A stretch of DNA of 64,000 nucleotides from Torpedo marmorata (Eukaryota), in NCBI GenBank assembly GCA_977017645.1, contig OZ360236.1:21204001-21268000 (forward strand), written 5' to 3'. A program made the translations under genes and the position numbers. Within the stretch, counting starts at the first letter, position 1. Every line of letters starts with the position of its first letter. The notes under the pieces were generated by a model. It ran no database searches. It had not been told where the DNA came from and worked only from the letters and a program-made list of their open reading frames with translations. Of the stretch, positions 7,407 to 54,439 are shown piece after piece.

Positions 7407-7981
7407 TGCCATATATGCTGGCATATAAGACGACTGTATAAGACGACCCCTGACTTTCCACCTAAAATGTAGATTTTGAGCGATACTCATTGCATAAGGC
7501 TACCCCAAGTTTTACTGCCCCAATAGTCCTTTACCAATCATCTCACTGACCAATGGAGTGATGCTGTCAATATTTTAAAAGCAAATTATCCAGTAAAGGT
7601 TTAAATTTTATTAGCATATTTTAAAATAAACCGCCGTCAGCTCCTTTAACAGGCTGTTTAAAGCCTATACAGAGCCGATGCCAGTCGGACTAGGCAGATG
7701 GACCCTGCGGGGGAGCTCTGAGACTTGGCTGTTAAGGTTCAGATTTTATACTTGGTGTGGGAGAGCGCTGAGACTTCGCTGTTAAGGTTTGGATTATATA
7801 ATTGGCATGGGGGAGCGCTGAGAATTCGCTGTTACGGTTCGGATTTTATACTTGGCGTGGGGGAGCGCTGAGACTTTGCTCTTAAGGTTCGGATTTTATA
7901 CTTGGTGTATAAGACAACCCCTGGTTTTGAGGTGACATTTTTAAAGTTCAAGTACCATCTTATATGCCTGCATTTATGGTA
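7407..7981. mobile_element. Tc1/mariner (pogo-like) MITE nested in the hAT element
   Basis: TIRs tgccatatatgctggcatataaga / tcttatatgcctgcatttatggta. Related to the elements at 30660 and 60353. Confidence 0.7.
7711..7910. repeat. 50-bp minisatellite, 4 copies
   Basis: Unit gggagcgctgagacttcgctgttaaggttcggattttatacttggcgtgg starts at 7711, 7761, 7811 and 7861. Confidence 0.95.

Positions 7982-10501: not shown

Positions 10502-10536
<35 letters not shown>
10502..10536. repeat. (TA)n microsatellite, left flank of the Penelope composite
   Basis: Pure TA run. Confidence 0.97.
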
Positions 10537-10541
<5 letters not shown>

Positions 10542-10702
10542 AGGTAAGGTTCCATTATTGTCACGTAATACTACATTTTTTAGAATGTAACATACATGAA
10601 ATTATTTAATCTTTGTCTACCGTAAGGCAGACAGAGAGTCGTTAGTTTGTCCAGCACCCCTCACAGAAGCCTACAGCACCTGGTGTTCCTAGACGGTCTC
10701 CC
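10537..10702 (-). mobile_element. 5S rRNA-derived SINE (SINE3-like), 5'-truncated
   Basis: Minus strand 10702-10667 GGGAGACCGTCTAGGAACACCAGGTGCTGTAGGCTT matches the 3' end of vertebrate 5S rRNA with about 4 mismatches in 36 nt. It is followed by a tail shared with 32300-32412 and by (ACCTT)n. Confidence 0.72.
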
Positions 10703-11753
10703 CTCATTACTTTCATCTGACAGAGCATCATTTGACAGAGCCGCACCACCCTACCAGAAGGCACTCGATCAAAATGGATACAAATACACACTCCACTACG
10801 AACCCGCAACAAATACAAGGCACAGAAATCGGAAAAGAAACAACATACTATGGTACAACCCACCCTACAGTATGAATGTCAAAACCAAAATTGGACAAAT
10901 ATTCCTCCGACTCATAGATAAACACTTCCCGGATGACCACTGCCTACACAAGATCTTCAACCGTAACACCGTCAAAATCAGTTACAGCTGCATGAACAAC
11001 ACCACGCAGATAATCGACAACCACAATAAGCGTATCTTATACCAACTAAAAAATCATAACATTAACGAAACAAGGAATCAAATGTGTAACTGCCGACCTA
11101 AGGCAAAATGCCCACTCAACGGCAAGTGCCTTCAATCATCGGTAATCTATCAAGCCACCGTAACCCGCAAGGACAACAATACCACCGAAACATATATTGG
11201 ACTAACAGAAAACACGTTCAAAATAAGATATAATAACCACACTGCCTCATTCCGCCACAAGAAACACAGGAACGCAACGGAACTCAGTAAACATATTTGG
11301 AAACTAAAGGACGAAAACATAGACTATTCCCTCTCATGGAACATACTTTCATCAAACCCTGCATACAATAGTTCTAGCAAGCGATGCAACCTCTGCTTGA
11401 AAGAAAAGCTTCTAATTATTTGCAACACCAACATATCATCCCTAAACAAGCGTAATGAACTAGGAGCTTCATGTCCACACAGAAACAAAGCATTGCTATG
11501 CAGCAATTAAATACTCGGCACCAATTGAACAAAACACCACTGTCTACCATTAACACCTAATTTGACTCACATACCAGACCCCTTACTATATAACCGAGGT
11601 ATCCCTTACAGCAACTACCCCTGAAGAGTGGAAAGATCCACGAAACAAGCTTGTCGGGCACATGTGAGTAGTGTGCTTTTCTGTTTACTTATTTATTTAG
11701 CTCCACAATACGTGTTGAGCACTATTTTATAGTGAAGATCAACCTTACCTAAA

Positions 11754-11755
<2 letters not shown>
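10703..11755 (+). mobile_element. Penelope-like retroelement, 5'-truncated, with uninterrupted thumb/linker and GIY-YIG endonuclease ORF
   Basis: ORF to 11510 has ILWYNPPYS, HKIFNRNTVKISYSC, CNC-x5-C-x5-C, VIYQA..YIGLTE..FKIRYNNH, TELSKHIW, RCNLCLKEK. Hammerhead in the 3' region. Confidence 0.92.
11618..11658 (+). ncRNA. Minimal type I hammerhead ribozyme
   Basis: ccc-CTGAAGA-gtgga(aaga)tccac-GAAA-caagcttg-TC-ggg. Complete catalytic core, 5-bp stem II, palindromic stem III (acaagcttgt), GUC cleavage triplet, ccc/ggg stem I. Confidence 0.88.

Positions 11756-11796
<41 letters not shown>
11756..11796. repeat. (TA)n microsatellite, right flank of the Penelope composite
   Basis: Pure TA run. 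Confidence 0.97.
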
Positions 11797-11800
<4 letters not shown>

Positions 11801-11804
11801 CGCA

Positions 11805-12046
11805 GGGGTGGCACGGTTAGTGTAGCAGTTTGAATCCCACGCTGTCTGTAAGGAGTTTGTACATTCTCCCCATGTCTGCGTAGGTTTCTTCTGGGTGCTC
11901 CGGTTTACTCCCACCATTAAAAAAAACGTACCGGGGGTTGTAGGTCAATTAGAGTGCAATTGGGCGGCATGGGCTCATGGGCCGAAAGGGCCTGTACCAT
12001 GCTCTATGTCTAAACATTTTTTAAAAATTAAAAATTAAAAAATTAA
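11805..12046 (+). mobile_element. tRNA-derived V-SINE (HE1-like)
   Basis: Head ggggtggcacggttagtgtagc, V-domain-like core tctccccatgtctgcgtaggttt..gctccggttt, tail ggccgaaagggcctg. Confidence 0.85.
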
Positions 12047-39252: not shown

Positions 39253-40649
39253 TGGTCGTGTCATGTTGTTTTTGATGTAATATCTTGATTCGTTCGTTTT
39301 GCCGAAAGTTCTAAACAGATGACGAGTAAGTATAGAGAATAAATGACTTTAGTGGCTTCAAACTACCTGCTGCAAAACTGAATTGGACCACTATCTCCCC
39401 AGTAGATACACCCTTTTTGCCTGTGTCGTAGAGGCCGACTGGTCGCAAGAATTACTGGAAAGACCAGGGTCAAACAGATAAAAAGAATGATTTGAAAATG
39501 AATTGTTTAAATGACACATTTCATGTATATTAAAATAAAATATACAGAAAGTGTTGTCTCAATGTACAGGATAATTTAACTTTTTTACAATTTGTATCTG
39601 GTTGAGAGAATCGCATCTGTCAAAAAAAATGTTTTGTTGCAAAACTTAACTTCCCAGAAAGTCGCAACTATTTGTTCGAGCCAACTTAACACATGGATGT
39701 TCAAGCGGTGACTTAATTTGCATGGTTTGTCCAGAACTTAATTCAACAGAACTTGTCCAGCGACTCTCTACAATTATAATTTACACTATGATCAATAAAA
39801 CAATATAATCAAACTAAAATTAACAATTTTAATTTTTATCCATCGTTATTTTGTCAACAGTTCCAATGAAAATATTGCTGTTTCAGTAAGATCTTTTAAA
39901 TTTTAAATGTGCCAACGCGCATGAACACAACATTAGAAAGTGGACAATTAATTCTCTAAGACAGTCCAACTTGGCAAAGTGAAATCCAGTCCTAAATTGG
40001 GAATAGCTTTAGAACGACCTATTTACAGATGTCAGTGCGTAATAGTTTGCGATGAATGAGTTTTCGGTGTGGAAGCAATTGCTAATCGGCATCACAACAC
40101 TTGGACTACAGTCTACCCAAAACGGGTGAAAAGGTGGCCCATTTTTAAAACAAAATGACAGTCGAAGAGTGTGATAAATCAAACACTGACTGTAATTTCA
40201 AGCTATTAGGTACACAGTTGCCCCGAGGTCACTGCGAGTGCTCCGGCCCTCCGCTGCGCTCCGGGTTTGTCATGTTCATCATAGCCCTGGGCTGAAACAC
40301 CAATTCCGATTACACGCGAAGAAAATTTCAGGTAGTAACAGTTGAAATCGGAAAATGAAGTTGTTAATTGTTATTCAGGAGAGAACCCGCTGTTATTGAA
40401 AGAAGATGAATATTATTCCCCAAATTGAATTATATTTGGGGGGTTGTGGGTTATAAAGTATCCTGTGGCTCGTCAGATCGTAATGTTTGTTCCAACTTTG
40501 CCGCAGTTACAATATGTGCAGCAATATTTGTTCAAAGGGGCCTCCAATCGTATACAGGACATACGTCTTTAATGGTACGAAATATTTATTTGGACTCGAG
40601 CGGTTGTACTGCCCTCTCCAATTTTTTGAAATGAATGTCAGTGACTTAC

Positions 40650-41178
40650 CCAGACTGGATCTCCTGCCAGACATGGAGACTTGTCTTGCCTGAAGGCTGT
40701 GAATCATCGAGCTCTCGAACGGTCCAGGTGGCCAGGCTGAAGTCATCTCTGGCCCGACGTAGGTAGGATACGGACTGGAATAGGTTCCGTTCACCGATCT
40801 GACCAGGGCATTCCCGTACTGCTCCCTGCCACCGGCGCTGATGACCAAAGGGTTGGTGTACGCCGCATCCCTCCCTGCGCCGTGGCTCATGGGGGGACTG
40901 TGAGAATAGGAGAAGGTGGTCGAAGGATGCGGGCTACTGGCGTTGAATCCAGAGTTTTCTGTGACTGATTGCGGCCAGCCCGTGTGATTGCTCAGGTGAT
41001 GACTCTGATGGGCTGAATCGCAGTTCTGGAGGTAGGGTAGGCTGGGTAACATGGAAGGGACGCGAGTTGTCGGCACGTACACGGGTGAGCCCGCCGAAGA
41101 ATGCATAAAATTGCCGGAAGCCTCGTGGGGATAGGTCGGTTGTCCATGGTTTGCAGCTAGCGCCAAACTTTGGTACAT
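40650..41178 (-). CDS. GATA5: GATA5 first coding exon (exon 2, transactivation domain)
   Basis: MYQSLALAANHGQ..SPVYVPTTRVPSMLPSLPYLQ..FSYSHSPP..SWPPGPFE. In-frame TAG two codons upstream of the ATG. Donor G/gtaagt, 529 nt, phase 1. The six exons total 1200 nt (399 aa). Confidence 0.95.
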
Positions 41179-41385
41179 TTTCTATCCGACCCGAAGCCCT
41201 GATGCGTCACGAAAACGAATGCACACTGAAATTGTTTAAACTCTGAATGCACTCAAATTGCCTTCACTTTGAAATCAGTTCATTGCTAATTGTGTAAATA
41301 AGAGGGGTCCCTCAAAACGAAGACGACCGCGGGAAACCGTCAATGTTCCTCTATTCACGCTCTGACCTCTCAGCGAGAAATTCAC
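41179..41385 (-). other. GATA5: GATA5 exon 2 5' UTR portion
   Basis: Strong acceptor atttatttgtttcag/GTG at 41386-41387. Confidence 0.7.
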
Positions 41386-48794: not shown

Positions 48795-51700
48795 TCAAAT
48801 CCTTAAACCCACAGCTCTCATATATGGGCTCCAAATTTTCAAAAAGAAATGATATTTATTACGTAGATTATAAGTAATTTTTTCCAGTGGTATACACGAA
48901 CGGAGCTCTGCATGCCATCTTTCTAATCCTAAATCTAAGTCAGATTTCCAAGTAATAGCAATGCATTTTTTCGAAACTGCTAAAGCAATTCGTAAAAATT
49001 CTACTTGAAACATATTTAATTTCTTTTTAATACTAAATTTTCTAATATCTCCAAATAAAAATAACATAGGATTCATTGGAAATGTAATATTAAATACTTT
49101 ACCTAAATTTTTTTTAACTTTCAACCAAAAATCTTGAATCTTTGGACAAAACCATGTAGAATGTACAAAAGAACCTTCCTCATTATTACATCTAAAACAT
49201 AAACCTGATAATGTCGGATTAAATTTCTTTAATTTTTTAGGTGTTAAATATAATTGATGAAAAAAATTATATTGTACTAATCTATATCTAACATTGAGAA
49301 TCTTCGTCATACTTAATTTTCATAATTCTTTCCAATGATTTTCATCTATTCTTACATTCAAATCTGTTTCCCAATTTAATCTTGATTTATGAATTCCTAC
49401 TTTAGGCATTTTCTTCTGAAACAATTTATACATTTGAGAAATAAATTTATTAACTTCTCCATTGGTGACTAATAATTCTAATTCATTTTGTCTTGGTAAA
49501 ATCAAAGCATGACCTAATTTCTCAATTAAAAAAGCTTTAACTTGATAATAAGCTAAAAATGTATTATCTAATATATTAAATTTATCTTTCATTCTTTGAA
49601 ACGTGATAAATCTTCCAGCTTCAAAACAATCATTAATCTTCTTAATACCTTTTTGAAACCAAATTTTAAATAATTGATTATTAATAGTAAATGGAATAAG
49701 TCCATTTTGATATAAAGGCATATTTGAAGAAATTAATCCTCTTCCACCTATCTCTTTATCCGTCTTACCCCATATTTCTAACAAATGTTTAATAATTGGT
49801 GAATTTTTCTTTTTTACTGATATTAATTTAGAATCCCATTTATAAATAATCTCTTCTTTAAAGTTTTCTCCTATATTATTTAATTCTATTTTAATCCAAG
49901 CCGAAGTTTTATTTGGATCGAAAAATTCATTAACAAATTTTAATTGAGCTGCTTTATAATAATTTTGAAAATTAGGAAGTTGCAATCCCCCCAACTCATA
50001 ATTCCAAGTTAACTTTTCCATACTTACTCTTGCTAACTTTCCTTTCCACAAAAATTTCCTAACAATAAAATTTAAATCTTTAAAAATTTTTTGAGGGATT
50101 CCAAAAGGAATTGATTGAAAAAGATATTGAACTCTTGGGAAAATATTCATTTTAATACAATTTACCCTTCCCATTAAAGTTATGGGTAAATCTTTCCAAT
50201 TCTCTAAATCTTTCTTTATTTTCACAAATAATGGTAAATAATTTAATTTATATAAATTTTCCAATTTTGTATCAACCTTAACCCCTAAATATTTAATTCC
50301 CTCTTTAGCCCATTTAAATTGTGTTATTTCTTTACATCTAGTATAATCACCTTGAGATAAAGCCATTATTTCACTCTTATCTGAATTAATTTTATATCCA
50401 GATATTTCACCATATTCTCTTAGTATAATAGATAATTGTTGAAGTGACATAATAGATTTTGTCATATATATCAATACATCATCTGCAAACAAACTAATCT
50501 TATGTTCTTCCCTACCAACTTTAATACCCACTATTTTAGGATCTTTTCTAACTAATTCAGCCAAAGATTCTATTGCCAAAACAAATAATGCTGGTGATAG
50601 GGGACATCCCTGTCTCGTAGATCGTGTCAAAGAAAATTTTGGCGATATTTGTCCATTTGTGATCACTTTAGCTGATGGTTCTTTATATATAGTTTTAATC
50701 CAATTTATAAATATATTACCAAAACCAAATTTTTCTAATACCTTAAATAAAAAATTCCATTCTAATCTATCAAAAGCCTTTTCAGCATCTAATGTTACAA
50801 CTAATGGTAGATCTTCCTTCTTTTTATGCAAACCAATTAAACTAATTAATCTAGCTATATTATCCTTTGAATATCTATTTTTAATAAAACCAGCTTGATC
50901 TAAGTGTATCAAATCTGGTAGATATTTAGCCATTCTATTTGCTAAAATTTTTGCCATTATTTTATAATCTACATTTAATAATGAAATAGGTCTATATGAT
51001 TCAGTTTTTAATACATCTCTATCTTTCTTTGGTATAACTGTAATTATAGCATTTAGAAATGTTTTCGGTAATAAATGAGTTTCCGTAATTTGATCTAATA
51101 CTTCCATATATGGAGGTATTAATAAATCTTTAAATTCTTTATAAAATTCTGATGAAAACCCATCATCACCCAGAGATTTACCATTCTTCAACGATGAAAA
51201 AACTTCACTGACTTCTCTCATTGTAAAGGTAAGTCTAAAGAATCTCTACTCCGGTCATTCAATTTAGGTAATGTAATTTTAGATAAAAATCTATTAATTG
51301 TAGAATCATCTTGATCAATCTGTGATCTATATAAATTCTGATAATAATCTTTAAAAGATTCATTTATCTCTTGAGGTTTATAAGTTATTTCTCCAGTATT
51401 CTTCTTCCTTATAGCGTTTATAGTTTTAGAAACTTGTTCTTTTTTCAATTGCCATGCCAAAACCTTATGGGCTCTTTCTCCTAATTCGTAATATCTTTGT
51501 TTAGTTTTCTCAATTAATTTTTCCATTTTATATGTTTGCAACAAATTATAATGTAGTTTCTTCCTTATTAAACAATTTCTTTTTTGAATTGATCTATTTC
51601 TCTGTAAAACTTTTTCCATAAATTCAATCTCCTTCTCTAATTTTTCTGATTCTCTAAGATAATCTTTCTTAATTTTAACTGAATAACTTATTATTAAACC

Positions 51701-53444
51701 CTTTAAATAAGCTTTTAAAGCTTCCCATACTATAAATTTATCATTAGTAGAGTTAGCATTTATTCGTAAAAATTCTTGAATTTCTCTTCTTATATATTCA
51801 CAAAAATCTTTCCTTTTTAATAACGATGAGTCAAACCTCCAATTATATATAGTTTTTTCTCTTTCCGGGATTATACAAGACAATAACAAAGGTGAATGAT
51901 CAGAAATTACCCTCGCTTTATAAGATACTTGCAATATTCTATCTTGAACTTGTGATGATAATAGAAATAAATCTATTCTAGAATATGAATCATGTCTAAA
52001 CGAATAAAATGAATAATCTTTTTCCCTAGGATTCAGTCTCCTCCAAATATCTATTAAATTTAAATCTTTCATCAAACTAAGAACTTTTTTCACAATTTTT
52101 TTTTTTTTTTTAAAAATAATTTTATTTAAATTTTAAAATCACAAAATACATAAATCAAAAATACTATATCATTCCAAATACATGTGATATATTTCCCCCC
52201 CCTCCCACCCACCCCTCCCCAACCCCCCCAGCACTATTCTAAAAAAAAAAAAAAAAAAATAGTTATAAAGAAAAAAAAAGAAAAGAATTGAATAATAAAG
52301 AATTAAAGAATTAGAGTGAGGAGAAAACAAATTACAAGCTAATTCTATTTATATATTGGAGGTTAGTTTTGCCAGCGGCACCGACTTCTAGAGAATTAAT
52401 TTATACCCATAATTCTCATATATGGGCTCCAAATTTTCAAAAAGAAATGGTATTTATTACGTAAATTATATGTAATTTTTTCCAATGGTATACAAGAACG
52501 TAATTCTGCATGTAATCTATCTAAATTCAAATCTAAATCTGATTTCCAAGTAATAGCAATACATTTTTTTGAAACCGCTAAAACAATTCGCAAAAATTCT
52601 ATTTGATACATATTCAATCTATTTCTAATACTAAATTTTTTAATATCTCCAAATAAAAATAACATAGGGTCCATTGGAACCGTAATATTAAAAATTCTAT
52701 CCAAAAAAATCTTTAACTTTAGACCAAAAGTCTTGAATTTTTAAACATGACCATGTACAGTGTACAAAAGAACCTATTTCATCCTTACATCTAAAACACA
52801 TATCTGATAATGCAGGATTAAATTTCTTTAATTTTTTAGGTGTTAAATATAATTGATGAAAAAAATTATATTGTACTAATCTATACCTAACATTAATAAT
52901 TTTAGTCATACTCAATTTACATAAATCTTTCCAATGTTTTTACTTTTTTCACAATTTTAGGTCTAACAGATGATCTTGAAGTTCTATCCATTATTGAATC
53001 TAAACAACAATTGAAGTCTCCCCCAATTAAAATATTCTCATTAGCATCTGATAAATGTAAAAAGGCATCCTGAATGAACTGCTCATCATCTGGATTTGAC
53101 ACATATAAATTCATAAGCGTCCAAGATTCTGAATAAATTTGACAATGTATCAAAACATATCTTCCTGCTACGTCTGTAATTACCGATTGTATCTTAAAAG
53201 GTAATTTTTTATTAACTAATATAGCTACACCTCTTGCTTTAGAATTAAATGAAGAAGACACCACATGGCCAACCCACTCTCTTTTTAATTTTTGATGTTC
53301 CAAGTCTATCAAATGAGTCTCTTGTAAGAAAGCTATATCTACCTTCAACTTTTTAATATATGGTAAAGTTCTTTTTCGCTTAATTGGATTATTAAGCCCA
53401 TTTATATTTATACTTACTAAATTTATATTTTTACTATCCATCAT
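48795..53444 (-). pseudogene. Disrupted L1 ORF2 (endonuclease-reverse transcriptase)
   Basis: Broken by the nested insert 52100-52941, a frameshift near 51220 and a TGA at 49320-49322 where the sister copy has TGT. Confidence 0.9.
52100..52941 (-). mobile_element. 5'-truncated sister L1 inserted in the host L1 endonuclease domain
   Basis: 17-bp TSD acttttttcacaatttt at 52083-52099 and 52942-52958. Own poly(A) and 3' UTR; peptide parallels 48795..49330. Confidence 0.92.
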
Positions 53445-54439
53445 AATCAAATTGTAACAAATCTCTTTCAATCAAATCCACTGGCTTCCCCCCCCTTGAA
53501 TTGTAAACTAATAAGAGGAAGCAAAAAATCCACCTCCCCCCAACAGATTAATGTAAACTTATACATTATATTTTCAATTAACCGATCCAATGTCCAAATC
53601 TTCTTGTTCATCCTCATTCTGAATCCGAATTCTCTCCTCTCCTGGCAAAAATCCTGGTACAGGAGCTTGCATTTGTTGATCTCCTTGATCTTGCTGACGA
53701 ATTCCTGCTCCATAATATCGACGCAAATTTGGAAGACATTGCGCATGTTTAAAAGCTTGCTGAGGATCCATAAACAAAAGGAAGTCATTTCCATTATTTT
53801 GAATTCTCAATACCGCAGGATACTTAAACGAAAACTTGTATCCTTTCTGCCAAAGCAATGCTTTTGCTGGATTAAATTCTTTACGGCTTTTAACCACCGC
53901 TGGACTTAAATCTGGATAAAAAAGAACTTTATTTCCACCTATCATCATTGAAGCTCCATTATCTCTCACTTTCTGTATTGCTGCTCTTAATATTTTTTCT
54001 CTATCTTGGTATCTCAAACATCTCATCAATACTGGACGTGGTCTCCGATCTACCTGATTACGTTTCCCAATTCTATGTGCTCTTTCCAGCTCCACTGTAT
54101 TATCAAAAGCAAATGTTATCCTCAACCAATCCTGAAAAAATTGAGTTACGTCCAATGTTTCAGTTCCTTCAGGTAATCCTAATATTTTAACATTATTTCT
54201 GCGGCTTTGGTTTTATCTGTTCTTATTCTTGAATCTAACTTAAGCTTGTCTGGTAATAGGCTTGAAGATAGCACCCACGCCCTACAGTAATAAAATATGT
54301 TTTTTCTATAACAATAAATAACAATGTTTTCTCACAATGGCTTTATTTCTCTGGCAGGTCTATGTCTTTTGTTGTTGAAACTTCCAATGGGGAATAATTT
54401 CTCACTCTATGTACCCTGAACTTCTCATTAATTTGAACA

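Follow-up and report, generated by a model that had tools for sequence, protein, structure and literature searches.

Hydra-clade Penelope-like elements (PLEs), as set out in the portions of Craig et al. (2021; PMC8557442) drawn on here, are shorter than 3 kb and carry a single ORF with RWK and DKT motifs, a CxCX5C linker and an endonuclease that has CxxC/CxH and no CCHH, insert at (TA)n targets and bear a hammerhead ribozyme after the ORF, all features in common with the Torpedo marmorata element analyzed below. The hammerheads of Penelope-1_NV, 1A_NV and 2_NV from Nematostella have the same layout as the Torpedo motif, with a 10-nt near-palindromic helix III (PMC8557442). The 27 Hydra families listed there are all invertebrate, whereas the Torpedo family resides in a jawed vertebrate and has undergone a very recent burst; the role of PLE hammerheads is called unclear in the same account, and Naiad PLEs thrive without them (PMC8557442). 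Metazoan PLE minimal hammerheads, in the part of the description by Cervera and De la Pena (2014; PMC4209133) used here, share with the Torpedo motif the type I topology, the location in the terminal repeat (pLTR), a palindrome at positions 15.2-16.2, the G10.1-C11.1 pair and a predicted dimer; their activity is low and dimer-dependent, and a circle model was put forward for tandem arrays. They have an unpaired nucleotide between A9 and position 10.1 and a helix III that is absent or 1-2 bp long, whereas in Torpedo no extra nucleotide separates A9 from stem II and helix III spans 10 nt. The Torpedo stem I measures only 3 bp next to the core, and its copies hardly vary, as in the exceptional D. 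virilis case of that description (PMC4209133).

Two further systems bear comparison. The Anolis Poseidon PLE (PAc), from what is excerpted of its characterization by Frangieh et al. (2024; PMC11167929), resembles the Torpedo element in that two internal reverse transcription (RT) starts, located 3' of the hammerhead, delimit a tail, the targets are AT-rich and both strands are used. It belongs to another clade, its hammerhead overlaps the ORF start and its RT starts lie inside the ORF, whereas the Torpedo motif lies 110 nt past the ORF stop and the tail is 62 nt long. PAc hammerhead mutants inserted normally in vitro, cleavage was protein-assisted, and the excerpt reports no RNA-seq ends at the cut, in contrast to the single probable A5 scar on the cut in the Torpedo genome (PMC11167929). 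Non-LTR retrozymes (PMC7229834) also consist of tandem units with type I hammerheads; the vertebrate retrozyme motifs need dimers and RtcB circularises retrozyme monomers. Retrozymes are non-coding and 170-400 nt long, unlike the Torpedo unit of 2,403 nt encoding an RT and an endonuclease (PMC7229834).

The motif lies in a 64,000-nt stretch of the T. marmorata genome (contig OZ360236.1, positions 21,204,001-21,268,000; henceforth the window), whose relevant features are collected in Table 1.

Table 1. Features at and around the PLE insertion, in window coordinates.
Feature	Position	Strand	Basis
Type I hammerhead motif; predicted cut C11655/G11656	11618..11658	+	Sequence; Rfam RF00163, 22.5 bits; strict descriptor, 0/200 shuffles
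Helix III, perfect 10-nt palindrome ACAAGCUUGU; predicted intermolecular duplex	11645..11654	+	Duplex -12.9 kcal/mol; homologues self-complementary
Two predicted structures: distal stem I (11610-11617 with 11669-11677) and a hairpin that competes with it (11656-11663 with 11671-11678)	11610..11678	+	Folding energies
3' 169 nt of a 5S-rRNA-derived SINE	10537..10705	-	Family head matches Rfam 5S above gathering score
5'-truncated PLE, almost certainly Hydra clade; unit nt 1352-2403 plus up to 3 nt	10704..11758	+	99.9% to the 2,403-bp tandem unit
C-terminal ORF segment (residues 435-702, approximately) with the CxCX5C linker and the GIY-YIG endonuclease; this copy lacks the RT core	10704..11510	+	
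3' non-coding repeat (pLTR); insertion termini near 11696 and 11758 with the 62-nt tail between them	11511..11758	+	36/60 and 16/60 arms end there
(TA)n tract at PLE 3' end	11757..11796	.	Sequence; fetched copies have a like target
(TA)n tract adjoining SINE 3' end	10502..10536	.	Sequence

An earlier note on this DNA had claimed intact core bases, a 5-bp stem II and a 3-bp stem I, and direct reading of the sequence agrees: CCC (11618-11620) and GGG (11656-11658) form the two strands of stem I, the core comprises CUGAAGA (11621-11627), GAA (11642-11644) and C17 (11655), and stem II consists of five Watson-Crick pairs (11628-11632 with 11637-11641) closed by an AAGA loop. All type I core positions (C3 U4 G5 A6 N7 G8 A9, G12 A13 A14, A15.1-U16.1 and H17) are accounted for in the sequence and in the Rfam alignment, and there are three helices, open-ended in stem I, with covariation among descriptor-selected homologues (8 of 29 loci). 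A loose pattern of core letters was insignificant, with 2 matches in the window vs 14 expected, while a strict structure-aware descriptor matched once in the window and never in 200 approximate dinucleotide shuffles. The Rfam search that the earlier note had proposed gave a split result: Hammerhead_1 came first when 181 nt were searched, its 22.5 bits (E 0.002) falling short of the 34-bit gathering score, and a search over 15 kb returned no Rfam hammerhead at E<=1. The RF00163 model is a poor fit to short-stem PLE variants. The low Rfam score, together with a fold z-score of only -0.95 for the 41-mer, is what could be cited for a chance match or a dead relic, a reading we find scarcely credible in view of the empty shuffles, the like position and layout in published Hydra-clade elements and homologous loci, the intact ORF of the carrier and the roughly 99.9% identity of its copies.

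The predicted fold of the monomer places the motif in an inactive state. Stem I can be extended distally by 8 pairs beyond a 10-nt bulge, which holds a second palindrome, CACAUGUG (11659-11666; predicted duplex -12.4 kcal/mol), and such a bulged, extended stem I is a candidate for a loop 1-loop 2 contact. The competing hairpin, immediately 3' of the cut, is predicted to be more stable (-14.9 kcal/mol) than the fold with the extended stem I (-11.0 kcal/mol), so that stem I is disfavoured by about 4 kcal/mol and its pairs have a predicted probability of at most 0.002 in the monomer; the hairpin would sequester the 3' GGG of stem I, and the default state of the monomer would thus be off. Pairing of the helix III palindrome between two copies is predicted to yield -12.9 kcal/mol, and homologues keep the self-complementarity through sequence changes, which bears out the suggestion in the earlier note that this palindrome favours dimers. 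That note had also termed the motif minimal, with a loop-less stem III: the palindrome stands, while "minimal" is loose for a helix III of 10 nt that could alternatively close a weak 3-bp hairpin.

Among 29 related metagenome loci, 8 carry a hammerhead, located 104-241 nt after the ORF match where measurable; many of the remaining loci lack the region or are decayed. Across these homologues stem II is changed on both sides at 4/4 pairs, stem I and helix III vary yet pair, and helix III is self-complementary throughout, even where it measures just 6 or 8 nt and could not fold into a hairpin. Because the homologues were picked by a structural descriptor, their pairing is partly built in, their position and palindromy are not. 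The catalytic core is invariant in 9 aligned motifs with differing stems, in part again through the descriptor. In one related metagenome element, the ORF is followed by two distinct hammerheads at a distance of 137 nt (L167:2263 and L167:2400). Within the window, hammerhead-like motifs of another repeat family, D5 (25647 and 39150, plus strand; also 41682), carry U in place of C3 and have a helix III of 4 nt.

Used as query against its own genome, the last 356 nt of the element gave 944 candidates, 40 of which were scored. At one locus, six 2,403-bp units and a further 644 nt stand in tandem, each unit with 0-2 differences and the array with the standard 3' end, and an array unit contains an open 702-aa frame with an RT followed by a GIY-YIG endonuclease at the C terminus (the translation shows YRDD and VIY..YIG). 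Searched with the partial or the full ORF, Pfam matched neither RT nor GIY-YIG; the ORF's neighbours in a protein atlas carry RT and GIY-YIG families. The frame has RWK, and DKT replaces DKG, as in 100/120 homologue rows; the CxCX5C linker (C562, C564, C570) is kept in 119/120 rows. CCHH is absent and no Cys lies between the GIY and YIG strands, and the endonuclease has CxxC (C662-C665) and CxH (C691-H693) around conserved E and N residues. With a unit below 3 kb (2,403 bp), a single ORF, (TA)n insertion and a hammerhead, the motif is almost certainly a Hydra-clade hammerhead. A Penelope/Poseidon, Neptune or Nematis PLE was ruled out by the lack of CCHH and DKG in the ORF, and a non-LTR retrozyme by the encoded 702-aa protein, in place of a short non-coding unit. 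Placement of the type I hammerhead in a PLE terminal repeat, as put forward earlier, is supported; the clade had not been named.

The family is very young, as had also been proposed: the window copy differs from the full-length unit at 1 position in 1,052 nt, and 42 fetched loci show 32 internal substitutions and 0 internal indels in 45,422 aligned nt. The hammerhead pattern occurs 2,337 times genome-wide, vs 203 for a reversed control, and among the matches listed 91/100 are the Torpedo Hydra-PLE hammerhead sequence. The 22-mer after the cut is carried by 3,606 arms genome-wide and 2,730 arms span the cut at normal length; among those listed, 100/100 are identical, so the conservation in other genomic copies on which the earlier note had staked its reading extends to thousands of matches. 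The family's youth leaves selection on the motif unmeasurable within the genome. The window copy is truncated and without a role of its own: it lacks the 5' half of the element and thus cannot make element RNA. Elsewhere, four two-armed insertions of the family are stacked in 3.5 kb (G000:C1:16162000-16166000), which suggests reuse of one TA tract.

A full RAG1 match (1,241 bits) identifies the host genome as that of a jawed vertebrate. Our search, which covered published papers, found no vertebrate Hydra-clade PLE, and a 2026 preprint that surveyed 35 species, 31 of them vertebrates, reports Hydra in coral only, in the part cited here (10.64898/2026.07.22.740005). Named members occurred in 3 of the 10 homologue clusters consulted, and all of these are stony corals, at 69-76% identity; a Nematostella homologue has 70% identity. 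A search among shorter proteins gave nothing above 77% identity, and no named vertebrate was among the 120 matches listed. In trees of 49 and 21 rows chosen from the search matches, the query is sister to Pocillopora elements with SH-like support of 95-96; nesting within anthozoan elements is not established, as anthozoan monophyly without the query was not rejected (AU p 0.32). On the similarity to coral elements and the reported invertebrate host range, we infer that the family probably arose by horizontal transfer from an anthozoan-like lineage. Near-identical PLE sequence is present in organisms A and B and versions about 90-95% alike in organisms C and D, so entry into vertebrates may predate the Torpedo burst. 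In C and D the resemblance ends immediately upstream of the hammerhead, and one change is listed within it. In organism C, about 41% of the depth at the equivalent of window position 11656, the first base after the cut, is A, not G.

The left end of the window copy abuts a 5S-derived SINE, joined head-to-head to the PLE via 2-nt microhomology. The SINE 3' motif has 24,493 exact matches in the genome. The window SINE differs from all 41-42 covering fetched copies at 3 positions in 169 nt and from most of them at 4 further positions (best identity 95.6%), private changes that far exceed the PLE divergence. The SINE is likely older than the PLE and was likely there first. We considered co-insertion by the PLE, given a SINE 3' end next to (TA)n and a position like that expected of an inverted arm, and judged it unlikely. 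SINE ends at (TA)7 are not clearly enriched: the 34 overlapping matches at about 22 loci among 24,493 lie within the background, which ranges from about 5 to 38 with the sample taken. A second SINE/PLE junction is found at L149:1578-1712, where a 38-nt PLE arm is directly preceded on its 5' side by a 3' fragment of the 5S SINE in like orientation, and several 5S SINEs (L198, L199, L207-L211, L224), a number of them 5'-truncated, have TA-rich microsatellite on both sides, like PLE targets. On the other flank, tRNA-type SINEs, which we take to resemble HE1 of sharks and rays, occupy 11800-12010, one beginning directly after the TA tract of the PLE, and also make up repeat families D2/D3; an HE1-like SINE makes a cartilaginous fish the likely host. 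The window further contains a tandem repeat with a 50-nt period and about five copies (7709-7955), an exon for a GATA-type transcription factor N-terminal domain (40507-41181, minus strand; PF05349, E 5e-77) and a broken LINE-type element in which endonuclease, RT and zf-RVT are matched (48795-53471, minus strand).

Among 60 arms, drawn from 36 loci that were picked because each holds a short arm, 3' ends fall at two fixed sites (36/60 and 16/60 arms; Table 1), about 40 and 100 nt 3' of the cut. Since both termini lie 3' of the cut, copies longer than about 100 nt came from RNA intact across the bond; insertion templates are thus uncut or re-ligated. No copy ends 3' at the cut, the 3 matches found being two G-to-A changes and the A5 locus described below. 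Among 32 arms with a non-C before the cut, 30 were examined and comprise 25 junctions, 3 C-to-U changes and the 2 arms of the A5 insertion; 5' junctions at the cut are therefore unenriched, at 25-32 vs a mean of about 29 per position nearby. None of 2,731 spanning arms has a deletion across the cut. The claim that cleavage at C11655 processes element RNA consequently finds no trace in the bulk of insertions, by way of 3' ends, 5' ends or templates. Among the short arms, 5' ends are concentrated at the hammerhead's 5' edge (unit 2266-2285; 38/60 arms) and at 2298-2313.

These observations fit a motif that serves as a structural or dimerisation element and as an RT pause site by the initiation sites, with cleavage incidental to transposition and arrays arising from long uncut transcripts. 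The absence of copies ending at the cut and of a truncation peak there, the short-arm clusters and the two palindromes with their predicted duplexes are as such a role would have them, as are the dispensability of anole PLE cleavage in vitro and the success of Naiad PLEs. A purely structural role, however, does not need the invariant catalytic core of the 9 motifs, and it leaves out the insertion of A5 exactly on the scissile bond; we regard it as unlikely.

The A5 insertion is present in both arms of one insertion (G000:C30:132513272) and is the only length change in the 10-nt cut window among the 2,731 spanning arms. There is no adjacent A run to slip on. Its location would arise by chance about 1 time in 11, and with the indel rate at its 95% upper bound, as many as 0.18 insertions would fall on a single bond by chance. 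A5 is a probable cleavage scar (n=1), and its simplest reading is that RNA was cut at C17, oligo-adenylated, and then joined or bridged by a template jump. We think it likely that some real cleavage occurs at C11655 in vivo. An oligo-A 3'-OH end is not the usual substrate of RtcB, so the scar indicates a break, not a circle. The literature searched reports no oligo-A scar at a PLE hammerhead. The insertion concerned (G000:C30:132513200-132513395) is short and two-armed, and its long arm has a T-to-C change at the position of the short-arm terminus.

Two-armed insertions also speak to the number of templates. Fifteen span a segregating site, and their arms are T/T in 7, C/C in 6 and discordant in 2. 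Discordance is unlikely to stem from new mutation (p about 4e-5), which implies that an insertion is at times served by two RNA molecules; concordance, at 13/15, is above random pairing (p 0.004). Discordant arms fit a dimeric particle and do not imply helix III as the dimer-maker. At segregating site 1872 the arms of one insertion differ at L038 and L244; L038, L232 and L247 have two long ends, vs the usual long/short pair.

Cleavage might alternatively be efficient and followed by seamless re-ligation, with circles as the main, scarless template. Arrays are indeed periodic at unit length with near-identical units, both termini lie just 3' of the cut in a geometry suiting a circle, and ligation of cyclic-phosphate and 5'-OH ends, being seamless, would leave a genomic record the same as that of uncut RNA. 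Against this, the predicted fold hides stem I, PLE minimal hammerheads are slow in vitro, and efficient cleavage should have left more copies truncated at G11656 than the background seen; we deem it quite improbable.

We favour, with moderate confidence, a terminal-repeat hammerhead of a very young Hydra-clade PLE that is cleaved rarely, via dimers, and likely with assistance from protein. Tandem arrays would give rise to read-through transcripts, most of which would stay uncut as the default hairpin hides stem I. Two copies could pair via the palindromic helix III and undergo occasional cleavage, likely aided by the element's own protein; cleavage of the dimer would free unit-length RNA, which could then be re-ligated into a circle. 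With uncut multimers or circles as template, reverse transcription would have its internal starts at the two termini and proceed through the hammerhead, and rolling reverse transcription on circles could generate multi-unit arrays, whereas a cut linear monomer would support cDNA of about 100 nt or less only. Whether circles serve as templates is, in our estimate, slightly worse than an even question.

The ribozyme motif alone is ordinary and of a published type; its carrier, a Hydra-clade element in a vertebrate, is more unusual. As the Torpedo family is intact, short and nearly invariant and has left thousands of insertion records, sequence decay cannot explain a negative result, and the scar predicts oligo-adenylated 5' products ending at C11655. 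A fuller reading, rather unlikely as a whole, is that of a currently active Hydra PLE in jawed vertebrates, derived from an anthozoan-like lineage, whose germ-line cleavage is recorded by the A5 scar and whose helix-paired, re-ligated circles are the rolling templates for twin-primed insertion. If true, the genome would bear witness to cleavage by an animal PLE hammerhead in vivo, in a system that is intact and can be tested directly. Within the literature searched, the Torpedo family extends the Hydra clade to vertebrates, through a probable cross-phylum transfer.
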